From: Gelidibacter sp.
GTDB taxonomy: Bacteria > Bacteroidota > Bacteroidia > Flavobacteriales > Flavobacteriaceae
Assembly: GCF_035577925.1 (NCBI RefSeq)
Contig: NZ_DATJCY010000077.1
Location: 185-64,184 of the forward strand
DNA: 64,000 nucleotides
Reading direction: 5' to 3'
The notes under the pieces are model-generated. The model saw nothing but the letters and a program-made list of their open reading frames with translations. It ran no database searches and was not told where the DNA came from. The position numbers and the translations under genes are program-made. Shown here in pieces: positions 12,832 to 45,482 of this stretch. Numbering within the stretch: the stretch's first letter is position 1; each line of letters starts with the position of its first letter.

Positions 12832-13934
12832 TGAGTGGGTTTTGAGATGAGATTTTTTATAAATATAGAAAATTGTACTAAAATTAAAAATATTTCAAGA
12901 AAAGGAAGAAAAGGAATAAGGTCTTTTTCGCCTAGTTTTTTGGCAGCCAAGGTGACCGAAATAAATGACGCTAAATACCTAACACCTATTAATCCAACAA
13001 CTATTTCCCAATTAAATAATGTGATAAGTAGGGCAGTGCCTAAAGCCACAAATAGAAATTGTGAAATATAAAATGTTGATAAAATAGCTTTGTGTTTTGA
13101 TTTATAATGTTTTGCCGTAGTAATGTGTCGGCTTTTTTGTGTTATCCAATCATTGAATGATGTTTTTGGAGTGGATTCTGTGAAGCTATTATTTGATAAA
13201 CAAATGGTTGTGTTTTCAGCCGATGCAATCTGATTGACAAAAAGATCGTCATCTCCCGATTTGATATGCATGTGATCCATAAAACCTCGGGCTTCAAAAA
13301 ACAAATCCTTGGTATATGCCATGTTTCTCCCAACACCCATATAAGGATGTCCCAACTTAGCATACGAAAAGTATTGGATGGCGGTCATTAAAGTTTCAAA
13401 TCGAACTAATTTATTCAAAAATGAGTTTTTAATTTTTGAATAAGCACCATAACCCAAAACAATTTGGTGCGAAGCTGTAAAATGACTGGCCATTTCACTA
13501 ATCCATTGATTGGAAACGGGTTTGCAATCGGCATCTGTAAATAAGAGGTGGTTATGTGTTGCGGCTTTAATGCCTAAGGTGAGTGCGTATTTTTTGTTGC
13601 CCCAAAAGGTTTCAATAGTTTTTACATTTACAATTTTGATGTTGCTATGCTTTGCTTTAAAACGTTCCATGACACTTAACGTTGTGTCGGTAGAGCCATC
13701 ATTGATTAATACCAATTCAAAATTTGGATAATCTTGATCCAAAATACTCGGTAAAAACAGGTTTAAATTCTCGGCTTCATTTTTGGCACAAACCACCACA
13801 GAAATTGGAGGCTTATTGGTAGCCACAGTATTTTCTTTTTTCTGTTTTACTTTAGAAAAAATATAGGCGTAAAAAAAAAGTTGAACGCAAATAACTACAA
13901 TAAAAATGTAGAAAAGTACATACAATACGATCAT
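12822..13934 (-). CDS. Membrane glycosyltransferase family 2
   Basis: ISVVVCAKNE, NDGSTD, GNKKYAL, FTDADC, SGDDDLFV and QKSRH (QxxRW-like) motifs; N- and C-terminal TMs. Confidence 0.92.
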   Translation of the reverse strand: MIVLYVLFYIFIVVICVQLFFYAYIFSKVKQKKENTVATNKPPISVVVCAKNEAENLNLFLPSILDQDYPNFELVLINDGSTDTTLSVMERFKAKHSNIKIVNVKTIETFWGNKKYALTLGIKAATHNHLLFTDADCKPVSNQWISEMASHFTASHQIVLGYGAYSKIKNSFLNKLVRFETLMTAIQYFSYAKLGHPYMGVGRNMAYTKDLFFEARGFMDHMHIKSGDDDLFVNQIASAENTTICLSNNSFTESTPKTSFNDWITQKSRHITTAKHYKSKHKAILSTFYISQFLFVALGTALLITLFNWEIVVGLIGVRYLASFISVTLAAKKLGEKDLIPFLPFLEIFLILVQFSIFIKNLISKPTHWK

Positions 13935-37703: not shown

Positions 37704-39374
<1,671 letters not shown>

Positions 39375-39452
39375 TTGAATTTGTTTATTGTTTGTTTTTG
39401 AAATTTTCTCCAGATAGTTATAGTTATCTAGATTGAGGAAATAATTTTATTT

Positions 39453-39728
39453 CTAGACGATTGCCAAGATGTCGCTTTCGCGCATGATGAGGTAGTCTTT
39501 GCCTTGAAGTTTTAGTTCTGTTCCGGCATATTTTCCGTAAAGAACAGTTTCACCAACTTTTACGGTCATTGGATTTTTTTTGGTACCTGCACCAACGGCA
39601 ACAATTTTTCCTTTTTGAGGTTTTTCCTTAGCGTTGTCTGGAATGATAATTCCTGATGCTGTTTTTGTTTCTGCCTCTACAGGTTCAATAAGAACTCTGT
39701 CTGCCAATGGCTTAATGTTTAATCCCAT
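39453..39728 (-). CDS. groS: Co-chaperonin GroES
   Basis: [37 protein letters not shown]. Confidence 0.99.
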
Positions 39729-39798
39729 AGTTGTATTGTTTGTTTAATTCACGCAATGCGTGATAGGTTAATTATTTTAATTTATTCGGATACAAGAT

Positions 39799-39814
39799 TG
39801 CGAAAAATGTGCCA
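39799..39814 (-). promoter_or_regulatory. Putative sigma54 (-24/-12) promoter of groESL
   Basis: Minus strand TGGCACATTTTTCGCA = GG-N10-GC with TGGCAC core, about 70 bp upstream of groES and just past the secG terminator. Confidence 0.65.
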
Positions 39815-39844
39815 TGAGCACTGAACTGACAAAGTTTCAGTAAT

Positions 39845-39876
39845 AAAAAAGTGCCAACAAAATTGTTGGCACTTTT
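39845..39876 (-). terminator. Intrinsic terminator after secG
   Basis: aaaaaagtgccaac-aaaatt-gttggcactttt. Confidence 0.85.
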
Positions 39877-39903: not shown

Positions 39904-40254
39904 TTATTCGTTTGGAGTTTCAGCAGGTGTTACCGGCTCGGTCGTAACTGGTTTAACGGGTGCAGGCATAGTGCTTGTTGCACCAGGATCCAATGCTTTT
40001 GATTCTGAAGTACCAGTTGCACCGTCAATAGCAATGTTTGATACCAATATCAATACCAATAATATTGTTGCTAGAACCCAAGTACTCTTATCTAAAAAGT
40101 CGGTTGTTTTCTTAACACCACCCAATTGTTGGGTTCCGCCGCCTCCAAATGAAGAAGATAAACCTCCACCTTTTGGGTTTTGAACCATGACGACTACCAC
40201 CAATAAAAATGAAACAATGATGATAAGGACTAGAAATATTGTAAACGTACTCAT
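39904..40254 (-). CDS. secG: Preprotein translocase subunit SecG
   Basis: VMVQNPKGGGLSSSFGG...FLDKSTW; two TMs. Confidence 0.95.
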   Translation of the reverse strand: MSTFTIFLVLIIIVSFLLVVVVMVQNPKGGGLSSSFGGGGTQQLGGVKKTTDFLDKSTWVLATILLVLILVSNIAIDGATGTSESKALDPGATSTMPAPVKPVTTEPVTPAETPNE

Positions 40255-40257
40255 GTG

Positions 40258-41202
40258 CTATTTGGTATTATTTTCTTGTAATTGTTTTACCGCTTTAATT
40301 TGGTCTGCAAAGAAACTACTTTTTTCTGGATATTTCAAAATTAATATTTTATAAGATTGAATTGCTTTGTCATAATTTTTTTGCTCTAAATAGATTCTCG
40401 CTAATGTCTCGGTCATTAAACTATCATTTTGGACCAATTTCGGTTTGTCCATATTAATGGTAGGCGTATAGTTTTTAACCGGCTGTATTTTTGGGTTTGA
40501 TTGTATGAACTTATCAATCAAATCGAACTTTTTTTCAAGTGGTGACTCTATTTTTGATTCTTTAATTATCTCCTCTGTCTGAGGTGGCAAAGTACTAATA
40601 GTTTCATCATCCGTTCGACGAATAGGTTTGAAACTCGTAATTGTTAACCATTCTGAAAACGAGCGTGATTCGTTTTTGTCAAATTCCAAAGGTTTGCCAA
40701 TGCCCAATTGTTCTTCGGGCGATGGCTGGATGTTTTTGAAATCAATATCAATAATACTCTGTTCTTGATTGATGTCAGTTGGTTCAGATGGTTTTTTTTC
40801 AAATAAATCTGGATCAAATATGCCTTCACTATCTTGGATATGTTGATCACTAACTACTTCTATCAACACATTTTTGTCCAATGAAATATCATTGGCATCT
40901 TTAACTTCAATGTTTTTTAGTAATTCTGTATTTTGCTTGATGAGTCTCGAAACTTCGTTTTGATTAAATGCTTCGGAAGTTATAAAATCAAATAGAATAC
41001 TTCTATCGGTTGTGTAAGCAGCGGTAACTCTAAGTTCTTGATTGTATTTAAAACTAGCTATTGCTTTTAAACCTTTTAAATAAAGTGCTCTTGCTGGTTG
41101 AAAATAGGGGTACTCTGCAACAATGTCACCAATCGTGGAGGTTTGGTCCGATGACAATTGCTCGGGATGGCTAAGCAGGTATGTAAATTCTTGTTTGTTC
41201 AC
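40258..41202 (-). CDS. Conserved Bacteroidota TPR-containing protein
   Basis: N-terminal YPYFQPARAL...AAYTTDRSILF; C-terminal MTETLARIYLEQKNYDKAIQSYKILILKYPEKSSFFA. GTG 41202 start preferred. Confidence 0.8.
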   Translation of the reverse strand: MNKQEFTYLLSHPEQLSSDQTSTIGDIVAEYPYFQPARALYLKGLKAIASFKYNQELRVTAAYTTDRSILFDFITSEAFNQNEVSRLIKQNTELLKNIEVKDANDISLDKNVLIEVVSDQHIQDSEGIFDPDLFEKKPSEPTDINQEQSIIDIDFKNIQPSPEEQLGIGKPLEFDKNESRSFSEWLTITSFKPIRRTDDETISTLPPQTEEIIKESKIESPLEKKFDLIDKFIQSNPKIQPVKNYTPTINMDKPKLVQNDSLMTETLARIYLEQKNYDKAIQSYKILILKYPEKSSFFADQIKAVKQLQENNTK

Positions 41203-41210
41203 TGTATCAA

Positions 41211-41717
41211 CTACCATTTGCCCAATGTGGCGTTTAAAATATCTTGTGTTATGCGTTCAAAAATTTCGTTGATTGCAGTTTCTTTCTGGCCACCAGTTAA
41301 TTGCGCAGTTCCTGGATAATCATAAAAGAATGAAAATTGTTGATTTAGGTCTTCGTCGGGGTTATTTTTGTCATAATAGCGCAAGCGTACACCAATGGTC
41401 AAGCGGTTTTGAGCAGCAGTATTATCGGCCGTTGCCGTTGTTGGTGAAATGCGGTATTCAGTTATTTCTCCTTCATAAGTGATGTCTCCTCCAGAGGTTA
41501 CCAACTGCAAGCTGGTTTGGTTTTGGATCATATCTGCAAGCATATTTGTAAAAGTACGCTCAATGCCGGGTTCAATTAATGGGGCATCATTTTGAAAATA
41601 GTTAACTTGATATGTTCTGGTGCCAGCTGGTAAAGAAATTCCTGTAAAAGAATAATACCCACATCCTGTAAATATGGTAAGACCAATAATAAGGGCTAAT
41701 GATTTAAGTTTTTTCAC
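41211..41717 (-). CDS. lptE: LptE-family lipoprotein
   Basis: Lipobox FTGC-GYYSFTG; FQNDAPL, YEGEITEY, RLTIGVRLRY, ITQDILNATLGKW. GTG 41717 start preferred over 41795. Confidence 0.8.
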   Translation of the reverse strand: MKKLKSLALIIGLTIFTGCGYYSFTGISLPAGTRTYQVNYFQNDAPLIEPGIERTFTNMLADMIQNQTSLQLVTSGGDITYEGEITEYRISPTTATADNTAAQNRLTIGVRLRYYDKNNPDEDLNQQFSFFYDYPGTAQLTGGQKETAINEIFERITQDILNATLGKW

Positions 41718-41742: not shown

Positions 41743-43011
41743 TTATAAATCGAATTGTTTGATTTTTCTATATAATGTACGCTCACTAATGCCAAGTTCG
41801 GCGGCGGCTAATTTGCGTTTTCCTTGATGGCGTTCTAATGATTTTTTTATCAATTCCAGTTCTTTGTCATGTAAAGATAAGGTTTCTTCTTCTTCAACTT
41901 CTTCCGCAAAATGGTATTTGTCATTGCGATCTTCATGAATTTCGGAAACTGAATTTGTTTTCTCAGGAATTGACAATACTTCAAAATCTTCGATGGCGCC
42001 ATCATCATAATCTTCAGCTTCGTCACTGCCGTAAATTTTTTGGATCAGGCTTTCATTTTTCTTTTGTACTTCATTAACGTTTCCGCTTTTCATGAGTTCC
42101 ATGGTCAGTTTCTTTAGGTCGTTAAGATCGTTTTTCATATCGAAAAGCACTTTGTAAAGAATTTCGCGCTCACTGCTAAAATCGCTGTCACTTTTTGAAT
42201 TTTTAATTACAGCAGGCAAATTATCACCTTGACTTGGCAAATAGCTATTTAAGGTTGCTGCATTTATGGTTCTGGTTTGTTCTAAGACAGATATTTGCTC
42301 GGCAGCATTGCGCAATTGCCTGATGTTGCCATTCCATCTGTTTTTTAAAAGTACATCAACGGCTTCATCAGTTAACTTAATGGTTGGCATTTTATATTTT
42401 AGAGCAAAATCACTCGCAAACTTTCGGAATAACAAATGGATATCCTCTTTGCGTTCTCTTAACGGAGGCAAATGGATTTCAATAGTGCTCAATCTGTAAT
42501 AAAGATCTTCCCTGAACTTTTCTTTTTTAATGGCTTCAAACATATTTACGTTTGTGGCCGCTACAATTCTGACATTGGTTTTTTGGACTTTACTGGAACC
42601 TACTTTTATGAATTCGCCATTTTCCAAAACACGCAATAAACGAACTTGAGTGGTTAATGGAAGTTCACCAACTTCATCTAAAAAAATAGTACCACCATCG
42701 GCCACTTCAAAATAGCCTTCGCGTGTATTTGTCGCGCCCGTAAATGCGCCTTTTTCGTGACCAAAAAGTTCACTGTCAATTGTTCCTTCTGGTATGGCAC
42801 CGCAGTTAACTGCAATGTATTTGCCATGTTTGCGATGTGATAATTGATGTATGATTTTTGGAATACTTTCTTTACCCACACCACTTTCTCCGGTCACCAA
42901 AACCGAAATATCCGTTGGGGCAACTTGAATCGCTTTTTCAATCGCGCGATTGAGTTTTGGGTCATTTCCAATAATTCCGAAACGTTGTTTTATGACTTGA
43001 ATTGATTCCAT
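41743..43011 (-). CDS. Sigma54-dependent enhancer-binding protein with no N-terminal sensor domain (AAA+ plus Fis HTH)
   Basis: GESGVGKE, FGHEKGAFTGA, FLDEVGE, AATN, FREDLYYRL, WNGNIRQL, AAAELGISERTLYRKIK; AAA+ core starts at about residue 12. Confidence 0.93.
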   Translation of the reverse strand: MESIQVIKQRFGIIGNDPKLNRAIEKAIQVAPTDISVLVTGESGVGKESIPKIIHQLSHRKHGKYIAVNCGAIPEGTIDSELFGHEKGAFTGATNTREGYFEVADGGTIFLDEVGELPLTTQVRLLRVLENGEFIKVGSSKVQKTNVRIVAATNVNMFEAIKKEKFREDLYYRLSTIEIHLPPLRERKEDIHLLFRKFASDFALKYKMPTIKLTDEAVDVLLKNRWNGNIRQLRNAAEQISVLEQTRTINAATLNSYLPSQGDNLPAVIKNSKSDSDFSSEREILYKVLFDMKNDLNDLKKLTMELMKSGNVNEVQKKNESLIQKIYGSDEAEDYDDGAIEDFEVLSIPEKTNSVSEIHEDRNDKYHFAEEVEEEETLSLHDKELELIKKSLERHQGKRKLAAAELGISERTLYRKIKQFDL

Positions 43012-43085: not shown

Positions 43086-44528
43086 TTATTGGTCGGCGTA
43101 GCCAACAGCAATGCCAATTAAAGTAGCACTGGTGCAATCTTTTACGTCAACATTTACCAAATCACCAACCTTGTAATGTTCTTTAGGAAAAACCGCTACA
43201 ATGTTTTGCGATGTTCTTCCTGACCACTCTTGATCTGATTTTTTTGATTCGCGTTCAATCAAAACTTCAACCGTGGTATTCAAATAGGCTTTTGTTCTGA
43301 TTTCGCTATGTTCTCTTTGCAATTGGACAATATCATCCAAGCGTCTTTTCTTTACTTCTTCAGGAACGTCATCTTCCAGTTTGCGCTCGGCCAAAGTGCC
43401 CGGACGCTCGGAGTAGGTAAACATATAGCCAAAGTTATATTTTACATAGTCCATTAAGCTTAAGGTATCTTGATGGTCGGCTTCAGTTTCTGTCGGGAAT
43501 CCTGCTATCATATCTTGTGAAATGGCGCACTCAGGGATTATACGTCTGATGTTGTCTATCAATTCAAAATATTCTTCCCTAGTATGCAATCGGTTCATTT
43601 CTTTGAGAATACGATTGCTGCCGCTTTGCACGGGTAGGTGGATATGTTTACATATGTTTTTATGTTTTGCCATGGTTTCGATCACGTCCAAAGTTAAATC
43701 TTGCGGATTGGAAGTTGAAAACCGAATGCGCATTTTTGGATAGGCTTTTGCACATAAATCCAACAAGTTAGAAAAATTAATAGCTGTTGCTTTTTGGATA
43801 TCGCTCGCTTTTTCAAAGTCTTTTTTCAATCCGCCGCCATACCATAAATAGCTGTCCACATTCTGGCCTAACAACGTGATTTCTTTAAAACCTTTGTTCC
43901 AAAGATCATGGACTTCTTCTAAAATACTTTGCGGGTCCCTGCTGCGTTCGCGACCACGAGTGAACGGCACCACGCAAAATGTGCACATATTATCACAGCC
44001 TCTGGTAATGGATACAAAAGCCGAAACACCATTGCTGTTCAATCGAACCGGTGAAATATCACCATAAGTTTCATCTTTACTTAAAATGACGTTAATAGCA
44101 TCTCGACCTTCGTCAACTTCCGCCAATAAATTGGGGAGGTCTTTGTAAGCATCCGGGCCAACAACAAGATCTACTATTTTTTCTTCTTCTAGAAGTTTGC
44201 TTTTTAAACGTTCGGCCATACATCCCAAAACGCCTACTTTCATTTTTGGATTACTGCGTTTTACAGCATTGAATTTCTCCAATCGTTTTCGGATGGTCTG
44301 TTCTGCTTTGTCCCTAATGGAACAAGTGTTGATTAAAACCAAATCGGCATCTTCTAATTTTTCTGTAGTGTTGTAGCCTTCTTTATATAATATGGAAGCC
44401 ACGATTTCGCTATCGCTAAAATTCATGGAACAGCCGTAGCTTTCAATAAAAAGCTTACGTTGATTTTCTTTTTTTTGTTCGAGTATGAGATGTTCGCCTT
44501 GCTTACTTTCTATAATAATCTTTTCCAT
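43086..44528 (-). CDS. miaB: tRNA-2-methylthio-N6-dimethylallyladenosine synthase
   Basis: SYGCSMN, NTCSIRDKAE, GCDNMCTFCVVP, GRERSR, C-terminal TRAM domain. Confidence 0.97.
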   Translation of the reverse strand: MEKIIIESKQGEHLILEQKKENQRKLFIESYGCSMNFSDSEIVASILYKEGYNTTEKLEDADLVLINTCSIRDKAEQTIRKRLEKFNAVKRSNPKMKVGVLGCMAERLKSKLLEEEKIVDLVVGPDAYKDLPNLLAEVDEGRDAINVILSKDETYGDISPVRLNSNGVSAFVSITRGCDNMCTFCVVPFTRGRERSRDPQSILEEVHDLWNKGFKEITLLGQNVDSYLWYGGGLKKDFEKASDIQKATAINFSNLLDLCAKAYPKMRIRFSTSNPQDLTLDVIETMAKHKNICKHIHLPVQSGSNRILKEMNRLHTREEYFELIDNIRRIIPECAISQDMIAGFPTETEADHQDTLSLMDYVKYNFGYMFTYSERPGTLAERKLEDDVPEEVKKRRLDDIVQLQREHSEIRTKAYLNTTVEVLIERESKKSDQEWSGRTSQNIVAVFPKEHYKVGDLVNVDVKDCTSATLIGIAVGYADQ

Positions 44529-44583: not shown

Positions 44584-44617
44584 CAAAGATATGATTATTT
44601 TTAATGATTGTGACAAA
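44584..44617 (-). promoter_or_regulatory. sigmaA promoter of the miaB operon (-7 TATCTTTG; -33 TTTG)
   Basis: CAAAGATA at 44584-44591 and CAAA at 44614-44617 (22-bp spacer). Confidence 0.55.
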
Positions 44618-44699
44618 GTGACAGTGTATAAAAATGTTTTGATAATGTTAAAAAATTATGTTTTCTTTGAGCCCAAACTACCTATAAAATAATTACACA

Positions 44700-45482
44700 A
44701 TGACCCCATCAGAATTTCAATTAAAAGTTTCAAATGCAAAAGATTTGGATTTTGGAACCATTATTAGCCAATCTATAGAACTATTTAAAAAAAGCTGGCT
44801 ACAGGGTTTTTTACTTCAGTTGTTTGTCATGATTTTGGTTCTTCCTTTTTTTATTGTACTATATGTACCGATCATTATGTTGGCGGTTTCACAGGCCGAA
44901 TCTGGAAATTTTGACCCCGATGACATGAATGGTTTATTTGAAGGTTTTTCTGTGCTTTATTTAATTGTGCTTTTTATTGGCATCTTTATTATAGGAGTTG
45001 TTCAGGTAGCGCTCACTTCAGCATTTTTCAGAATATTGAAAACACTGGATCAGGGTGGTGAAGTAAAAACTTCAGATTTGTTTTACTTTTTGAAAAAGCA
45101 ATATGTCGGTAAGATTTTAGTATTGATGCTAGCTTCCATTTTAATTGCGATACCGGCAGTTTTGTTTTTTTACCTTCCATTTATTTATGTCTTTGTGCCC
45201 ATGTCATTCTTTTTGATTGTTTTTTCTTTTAATCCGGAATGGACTGTTGGTGATGTTGTTGGAAACAGTTTCAGGATCGGAAACAAAAAATGGCTTTTGA
45301 CTTTTGGTTTGTTTCTGATTAGCTATATGGCTATTACGGTATTGTCTTTTGTGAGTTGTGGTCTTGGAAGTTTGTTTTTGGCGCCATTTTTATACCATCC
45401 CATCTATTTTATATATAAGGAAACTATTGGGTTTGATGATGTGAGTGAGTTGGATCAAATAGGTAAAGACACAGTTTTCTAA
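44700..45482 (+). CDS. Hypothetical integral membrane protein
   Basis: 260 aa with 5-6 TMs; DFGTIISQSIELFKK start, similar to small multi-TM families; function not recognised. Confidence 0.8.
   Translation: MTPSEFQLKVSNAKDLDFGTIISQSIELFKKSWLQGFLLQLFVMILVLPFFIVLYVPIIMLAVSQAESGNFDPDDMNGLFEGFSVLYLIVLFIGIFIIGVVQVALTSAFFRILKTLDQGGEVKTSDLFYFLKKQYVGKILVLMLASILIAIPAVLFFYLPFIYVFVPMSFFLIVFSFNPEWTVGDVVGNSFRIGNKKWLLTFGLFLISYMAITVLSFVSCGLGSLFLAPFLYHPIYFIYKETIGFDDVSELDQIGKDTVF

Follow-up and report, generated by a model that had tools for sequence, protein, structure and literature searches.

Sigma-54 is unable to initiate transcription without an enhancer-binding protein (EBP), and the EBPs that lack a sensory domain are typified by PspF, the phage-shock activator of Escherichia coli. 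The present work deals with such a sensor-less EBP, encoded at 41743..43011 on the (-) strand of a 64,000-nt stretch of DNA from Gelidibacter sp. (Flavobacteriaceae; contig NZ_DATJCY010000077.1, positions 185 to 64,184), hereafter the window. This EBP shares with PspF an AAA+ core bearing the GAFTGA loop, a C-terminal helix-turn-helix (HTH) and the lack of an N-terminal regulatory domain, and the two are alike in being linked to a stress regulon, in negative autoregulation and in an activity set in trans, the last two being features of PspF that are only proposed for the protein described here. It differs from PspF in its length, greater by about 100 residues, in having a conserved zipper-like helix and an acidic tether, in its box, a single palindrome centred about 20 bp from -24 and not a set of distal upstream activating sites working with IHF, and in its predicted targets, which are cytoplasmic chaperones and not psp genes. 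Sensor-less EBPs of the PspF and HrpR/S type are controlled in trans by dedicated inhibitors such as PspA and HrpV; for the present protein no PspA partner was identified, although no search aimed at a PspA-like gene was made. The role proposed for it, master control of groESL, dnaK, grpE, dnaJ, htpG and clpB, is the one played by sigma-32 (RpoH), HrcA-CIRCE and HspR-HAIR, and the logic of chaperone feedback is probably shared with those circuits, but the regulator here would be an ATP-driven sigma-54 activator, not an alternative factor of the sigma-70 family or a repressor. The HsfA/HsfB pair of Myxococcus xanthus, responsible for the sigma-54-dependent heat-shock activation of lonD, resembles the proposed system in placing a heat-shock gene with a sigma-54 promoter under the control of an EBP; HsfA, however, is an NtrC-type protein with a receiver (REC) domain and a cognate kinase, whereas the EBP studied here has neither a receiver domain nor a linked kinase. 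Likewise, NtrC1 and NtrC4 of Aquifex, its best structural matches in the AAA+ domain, are REC-regulated, unlike this protein.

Within the Bacteroidota, transcription start sites of Flavobacterium psychrophilum lie behind SM4, a sigma-54 motif, at groES-groEL, lon, dnaK, grpE-dnaJ, htpG, skp and clpB, and three EBPs were noted in that species, none of them assigned (Guerin et al. 2021; PMC9723704), which reportedly has sigma-A, sigma-54 and extracytoplasmic function (ECF) sigma factors only (PMC9723704). A 2025 survey found chaperone clusters of orthologous groups enriched behind predicted sigma-54 promoters in Bacteroidota (PMC12316311), and Francke et al. (2011) make no mention of Bacteroidetes, miaB or lptE. 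Sigma-54 control of flavobacterial chaperone genes is therefore already known, and chaperone control in the phylum had previously been reported only at the level of the promoter motif. The -24/-12 motif in the window is that of the F. psychrophilum SM4 set, and the neighbourhood matches as well (EBP THC0290_0733, LptE 0732, groES 0729), but that report (PMC9723704) describes no palindrome upstream of the promoters, no box at miaB and no retention in minimal genomes, all three of which are set out below. In the literature searched we found no paper naming a chaperone sigma-54 activator in Bacteroidota, its box or its retention in minimal genomes, and with respect to that literature the assignment of the activator, the operator with its fixed phase and the minimal-genome retention are new. 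Judging from comparative sequence evidence, we estimate at about three in four the probability of the following reading: the protein is a genuine sensor-less bacterial EBP whose most likely role in Flavobacteriales, and probably in Bacteroidota at large, is to serve the sigma-54 promoters of the heat-shock (protein-folding) regulon as their dedicated activator. A preliminary description of the window had proposed it as the activator of the groESL sigma-54 promoter, a proposal now supported comparatively by a promoter found in 79/79 loci, a box at fixed phase, a second box at the regulator's own operon and retention in symbiont-sized genomes. We favor this assignment because the same box also precedes the sigma-54 promoters of dnaK, htpG, grpE and yidC, as well as the operon of the EBP itself.

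The open reading frame (ORF) at 41743..43011 (-), a span that includes the stop codon, encodes 422 residues, in which Pfam places Sigma54_activat (PF00158) at residues 13-180 (E 7.8e-68; model positions 1-168 of 168, hence full length), AAA_lid_14 (PF25601) at residues 185-263 and HTH_8 (PF02954) at residues 383-420. The Pfam search of the 422-residue protein returned no REC, GAF, PAS or other N-terminal domain, and the short N-terminus is the same in orthologues phylum-wide. The sigma-54 interaction domain with its lid (residues 13-263; Pfam and PDB matches) occupies 42223..42975 (-), and the GAFTGA loop, the sigma-54 contact motif, is read in the translation at residues 88-93 (42733..42750 (-)), so that the AAA+ start at about residue 12, the intact loop and the missing sensory domain recorded in the preliminary description are all borne out. 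Among 32 orthologues there is little or no variation in Walker A (GESGVGKE, residues 41-48), in Walker B (D112-E113) or in the FREDLYYRL and GNIRQL motifs, the arginine fingers R167/R173 and the sensor II residues G228-N229/R231 are all invariant, and so are G88, F90, T91, G92 and A93 of the loop, which reads GSFTGA in the 0.6-Mb genomes G111 and G238. The closest solved structures are the AAA+ domains of NtrC1, NtrC4, FleQ, ZraR and PspF (best over residues 15-262, E 1e-71 to 2e-73), and the PDB holds no match to residues 263-380. All NCBIfam equivalog models (PspF, NtrC, NifA, NorR and others) match through the AAA+ core only and far below their cut-offs, with 269.6 bits against a cut-off of 443.55 for the PspF model TIGR02974, and 306.2 against 558.6 for the NtrC-type model TIGR01818, where the REC domain is also missing. 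By its sequence, the protein is thus a full member of the bacterial EBP family and of the sensor-less group typified by PspF, without being a PspF equivalog.

Between the lid and the HTH, the preliminary description had seen one long acidic linker. The acidic stretch is real, with a net charge of -8 over residues 331-345 and of -5 over residues 361-375, but the region is not a single linker, since its first part is a conserved helix. This leucine-zipper-like block (residues 276-327; 42031..42186 (-)), recognized from conservation, the AlphaFold2 (AF2) model and its heptad register, reads DFSSEREILYKVLFDMKxDLNDLKKLTMELMK...LIQKIYG and is strongly conserved phylum-wide and in symbiont-sized genomes of 345-634 kb, with heptad-spaced hydrophobic residues at L285, L289, M292, L296, L299 and L306 (best register 8/16 hydrophobic). 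AF2, run on a shallow alignment, draws helices at residues 281-309, 312-318 and 320-327 with a low-confidence pLDDT of 50-60, and gives a pLDDT below 50 for the tether, about 85 for the HTH and 60.6 on average. The tether proper (residues 328-378; 41878..42030 (-)), delimited by AF2 and by its counts of D and E, is variable, disordered and acidic over residues ~328-362 only, the last ~60 residues, HTH included, being almost invariant; it holds 9-15 D/E in 31-45 residues in free-living species vs 2-3 in the 0.6-Mb genomes. Its EVLxIPE motif was considered as a docking site and rejected, as it is confined to Flavobacteriaceae and not conserved in other orders. The Fis-type HTH DNA-binding domain itself (residues 380-422; 41746..41874 (-); PF02954 E 1.4e-11) is nearly invariant.

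The predicted target nearest to the gene is the groES-groEL operon (37704..39728 (-); groES 39453-39728, groEL 37704-39329), whose start lies 2.0 kb from the EBP stop codon. It is preceded by a -24/-12 sigma-54-type promoter, TGGCACATTTTTCGC (39800..39814 (-)), with TGGCA and G14 in 79/79 loci, and 12 nt upstream of the -24 element stands the putative operator box TGAAACTTTGTCA (39827..39839 (-)). The box is a 13-bp inverted repeat, TG(A/C/T)CA-N3-TGTCA, ideally TGACA-N3-TGTCA, and column counts over the 79 Flavobacteriaceae loci define a groES upstream block, CTG(A/C)AAnTTTGTCAG, that corresponds to its right half, with TGTCA at -17..-13 in 72-77/79 and CTG at -26..-24 in 46-77/79.

The same arrangement recurs in the Gelidibacter genome, where a box is followed 12-13 nt downstream by a promoter not only at groES (TGGCAC...) but also at dnaK (TGACACCTTGTCA; TGGCAC...), htpG (TGCCATCTTGTCA; TGGCAT...) and grpE-dnaJ (TGACATTTTGGCA; TGGCAG-N5-TTTGCA). 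Four of the 40 intergenic boxes of this genome have a promoter at the right spacing, and all four belong to chaperone genes; clpB carries a degenerate version of the composite. In 31 Flavobacteriaceae genomes the composite occurred 55 times, against a single occurrence in the reversed control, and the 30 sites inspected stood before htpG (14), dnaK (12), grpE (1), small heat-shock protein (HSP) genes (2) and yidC (1), all of them proteostasis genes. The gene for the membrane protein insertase YidC also seems to belong to the predicted regulon, as its box (TGCCACTATGGCA) is followed after 13 nt by TGGATGCATTTTTGC, a promoter of the form TGGATG-N5-TTTGC, in an identical site on contigs C6 and C63, and a yidC match was found in another genome of the family too. 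The strict textbook pattern TGGCAC-N5-TTGC[AT] caught groES and grpE but not dnaK, htpG or lon, which have TTGA in the -12 element, and the finding of chaperone genes by short peptide signatures was noisy. Taken together, the sites support a regulon that, as predicted from sequence, is wider than groESL and comprises the whole chaperone set.

A further box, TGTCACTTTGTCA (44611..44623 (-)), identified by sequence and conservation, overlaps the -33 region of the promoter of the miaB operon, to which the EBP gene belongs, and lies 19 nt upstream of a sigma-A-type -7 box, TATCTTTG (44584..44591 (-); consensus TAnnTTTG, PMC9723704). This spacing is 17-19 nt in 77/78 Flavobacteriaceae loci, and the box is also present at the miaB promoter of five distant Bacteroidia genomes from other orders and of the 634-kb G111. 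No -24/-12 element was found at the miaB box site, and the box is accordingly an operator in its own right, separate from the recognition of promoters by sigma-54. Lying over the -33 region, it points to repression and hence to a putative negative autoregulation of the miaB-EBP operon. In several relatives the miaB-EBP gap, which is variable in sequence, measures only 4-10 nt, making co-transcription of the two genes likely and the miaB promoter the probable driver of EBP expression; the relatives compared displayed no conserved internal promoter in this spacer.

The position of the miaB box is at the same time the classic one for a repressor, and a site about 20 bp upstream of -24 would also suit a repressor or a co-factor at the chaperone promoters. 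The box could, then, be the operator of another DNA-binding protein, such as a heat-shock repressor, with the EBP acting from solution or from other sites, as the EBPs of Chlamydia and Helicobacter, which function without DNA binding, would allow; the lon boxes, found downstream of a putative promoter, fit such a binder as well. We consider this unlikely, since the HTH of the EBP is nearly invariant even in the 345-kb genome, which argues for its use, the box persists in symbiont-sized genomes with very few regulators, and an operator standing before an operon that encodes a regulator is typically that regulator's own. The box is, moreover, unlike CIRCE or HAIR, and HrcA is absent from the Gelidibacter genome and from 20 relatives. 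A search of the same genome for an RpoH box by regular expression, a weak test, gave no match within a sigma-like ORF.

The assignment of the EBP to the chaperone promoters draws further on its distribution. A full-length sensor-less orthologue, with miaB-EBP-lptE-TPR synteny (TPR, tetratricopeptide repeat), occurs phylum-wide, and an orthologue was found in 293/301 Flavobacteriales genomes, being the sole EBP of many small ones; identity is 79-92% within Flavobacteriaceae (89-92% for the nearest Gelidibacter loci) and 45-65% across the phylum. The symbiont-sized genomes, named so for their size, come from one family and consist of single contigs; they measure ~0.6 Mb, much like Blattabacterium, except for one of 345 kb (G017). 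Each of them has exactly one EBP, full length and 61-63% identical in the two that were aligned, and the gene order is EBP, lptE remnant, secG, groES in G111 and G238, and miaB, EBP, secG, groES in the 345-kb G017. The Gelidibacter genome has one rpoN, on contig C210, and five tested symbiont-sized genomes, including the 345-kb G017, keep it, with G288 lacking it. In that 0.3-Mb genome of the same family no rpoN match was found and the EBP match is weak (E 8e-42), so the lineage may be losing the sigma-54/EBP pair.

The groES promoter is kept in the symbiont-sized genomes as TGGCAT-N5-TGG(C/A), and a genome-wide scan for the box yielded four sites in the 634-kb G111 and three in the 345-kb genome, against none in the controls. 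These sites are at groES, at grpE-dnaJ, where a -24/-12 element follows 12-13 nt on, at miaB (634-kb G111 only) and, once in each genome, inside a gene. Since sigma-54 needs an EBP and these genomes have a single one, that EBP must serve their groES and grpE-dnaJ promoters. A second strict sigma-54 match in the symbiont-sized loci L104, L106 and L108 was discarded as a false positive, being the antisense of the universal 16S rRNA 519 region (GCTGCTGGCACGGAGTTTGC); this antisense sequence is a near-perfect sigma-54 consensus and will be a false positive in any -24/-12 scan.

The Gelidibacter genome encodes five true EBPs, of which the one at 41743-43011 is the only sensor-less member; REC domains are present in all the others, one of which is truncated at the end of its contig. 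Among these four is a REC-AAA+ protein of 387 residues (C253:10027-11190 (+)) with a variant GAFTSA loop and no DNA-binding domain, whose gene is flanked by an ABC transporter pair and, on the far side, a PPK2-like gene, at a distance of 4 kb downstream of grpE-dnaJ. It could be argued that a REC-containing EBP activates the chaperone promoters in free-living flavobacteria and that the sensor-less one has another task, such as the control of envelope genes connected with lptE and secG, all the more as its oldest linkage is with miaB, lptE and TPR and not with groES, and as the sigma-54 promoters of F. psychrophilum are spread over several co-expression clusters (PMC9723704). Such a division of labor appears very improbable, because REC-type EBPs are missing from many small genomes and from those of 345-634 kb that keep the sigma-54 promoter and the box at groES and grpE, because no -24/-12 promoter was seen before lptE, TPR or secG and the box marks the operon of the sensor-less EBP itself, and because the REC-type EBP near grpE, being devoid of a DNA-binding domain, cannot be the binder of the box.

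Several observations nevertheless weigh against the sensor-less EBP as dedicated chaperone activator. Its connection with the box and with the promoters rests on co-occurrence, position and parsimony, and the Gelidibacter genome has four additional EBPs, three of them with an HTH, any of which could contribute in free-living species. EBPs usually act from several distal sites, and a lone dimer site this near to the promoter is atypical of them. Not every candidate promoter has the expected architecture: in the Gelidibacter genome, lon and a small HSP gene have -24/-12-like elements without an upstream box, and the boxes of lon lie downstream of its putative promoter. In the symbiont-sized genomes the groES box is 23-43 nt from the promoter instead of 12, the fixed composite TGTCA-N12-TGGYA is not kept at groES, and the -24 element of grpE in the 345-kb genome (TTGCAT) retains a single G in place of the GG. 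The AF2 model of the EBP is of low confidence (mean pLDDT 60.6). Finally, F. psychrophilum has an internal mapped start site and promoter before the EBP-lptE pair (PMC9723704), so the box at the miaB promoter may not be the sole control of the EBP level. As for lon (C71, ~13000-13200 (+)), its -24/-12-like element reads TGGCATAACTATTGA, and of the two TGTCA/TGACA palindromes downstream one is placed 39 nt before the likely true start of lon (MTPEDEEK...).

If the EBP is indeed the activator, we envisage that its HTH binds the 13-bp repeat as a dimer and that the AAA+ ring, once assembled, opens the closed complex of sigma-54 at the expense of ATP. From a box centred only ~20 bp upstream of -24 (about -45 relative to the start site), the ring may reach sigma-54 by means of the ~120-residue helix-plus-tether and dispense with the usual DNA loop, if the geometry is a guide. 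Binding at the -33 region of its own operon would result in negative autoregulation. Control of its activity would be exerted in trans and depend on the state of protein folding in the cell, with DnaK/DnaJ or GroEL, for example, keeping the EBP inactive until they are titrated by unfolded proteins. This chaperone titration, conceived after sigma-32, HspR and HrcA in other phyla, is the most speculative part of the proposal; among the possible ways of sensing we nonetheless rank it first, on the strength of that analogy, ahead of a coiled-coil thermosensor and of gating by the TPR protein. Titration of chaperones or proteases and the TPR protein had been named as possible gates in the preliminary description. 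The conserved helix would then be the probable control surface of the EBP.

That helix could itself be an intrinsic thermosensor, whose melting and re-pairing with temperature would set the balance between AAA+ dimer and hexamer. Its hydrophobic a/d positions are invariant over four heptads phylum-wide, coiled-coil thermosensors do exist, TlpA being an example, and the helix block is retained in the symbiont-sized genomes that have lost the acidic stretch and the TPR gene. We hold this mode of control to be unlikely even so: plain dimerisation of the DNA-binding arms would account for the conservation just as well, the AF2 confidence for the block is low, and in F. psychrophilum blood agar and osmotic stress are reported as inducers besides heat (PMC9723704).

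The remaining candidate for control is the TPR-like neighbour, which might act as a trans-acting inhibitor in the manner of PspA by docking on the acidic stretch of the EBP. TPR clamps are known binders of peptides of acidic character, EEVD among them, the TPR and EBP genes are co-linear throughout the class, and the symbiont family, where constitutive chaperone expression would be expected, has neither the TPR gene, absent from six of its genomes, nor the acidic stretch. This joint loss, however, probably goes back to one evolutionary event within a single family, other orders retain the TPR gene without conserving either the EVLxIPE motif or the acidity, and the TPR assignment is itself weak (23.3 bits for TPR_6, below the 26.3 cut-off), so that we regard a PspA-like inhibitor as quite improbable. 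In the 1.5-Mb relative G208, a whole-genome search found no TPR gene; its locus alone (L131, G208:C1, ~1221300-1222300) is uninformative on this gap, as the lptE-secG stretch reads N.

Pushed to its limit, the dedicated activator would become an indispensable, phylum-wide master heat-shock regulator of Bacteroidota, replacing sigma-32 and HrcA, working through a loop-free geometry and switched by its zipper helix, either chaperone-titrated or temperature-sensitive, an extended version that we hold to be possible but rather doubtful. The phylum counts among its members major gut commensals, pathogens of fish and of the mouth, marine degraders of polymers and the nutritional symbionts of insects, and the naming of an activator and an operator offers one gene and one 13-bp site as direct experimental targets. 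Should the assignment be correct, it would explain the presence of an alternative sigma factor and one AAA+ activator in extremely reduced genomes of flavobacterial symbionts, and would provide a natural example of an EBP acting from a promoter-proximal site. With yidC in the predicted regulon and the regulator itself within a miaB-lptE-secG operon, there is a hint that cytoplasmic folding is coordinated with the biogenesis of envelope proteins.

The genes around the EBP follow the order miaB-EBP-lptE-TPR-secG-groES-groEL, all on the (-) strand, and the ORFs and the Pfam/NCBIfam matches confirm this arrangement, including the 2-kb distance to groES, as the preliminary description gave it. The first gene of the operon, miaB, is at 43086..44528 (-) (TIGR01574, 440 bits). 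Divergent from it, with its start 77 nt from the box, runs a gene for a 260-residue multi-pass membrane protein without a Pfam match (44700-45482 (+)). After the EBP gene comes that of the lipoprotein LptE (41211..41716 (-); PF04390), whose start is most likely the GTG at 41716, 26 nt past the EBP stop codon, rather than the overlapping TTG at 41795. The cytoplasmic TPR-like protein (40258..41217 (-)), found beside lptE across the class, and SecG (39904..40254 (-); PF03840 and TIGR00810) complete the group. The seven-gene order from miaB to groEL is kept in 78/80 Flavobacteriaceae loci, and its part miaB-EBP-lptE-TPR throughout Bacteroidia as well as in certain further classes of the phylum, the adjacency to groES being less universal.

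A terminator-like GC-rich hairpin with a T-run follows secG (39845..39872 (-)) and has equivalents in most of the 79 loci, and it is for this reason that groES is taken to have its own promoter. The stem often reads TGCCAAC...GTTGGCA (39845-39872 and loci L012-L091), thereby containing TGCCA/TGGCA pentamers that resemble half-sites, and where free-living species have this terminator the symbiont-sized genomes have a short TGNCA-N3-TGNCA palindrome. The 5' untranslated region of groES (39735-39790 (-)) includes a palindrome, CACGCATTGCGTG here and AACGCTTAAGCGTT in many relatives (L012-L091), which was rejected as a conserved hairpin because many loci lack it or have it in a shifted position. 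What does recur is no more than a short CGTTAA-like element, 10-30 nt past the groES -12 element in many relatives, varying in position and sequence and absent in some loci.

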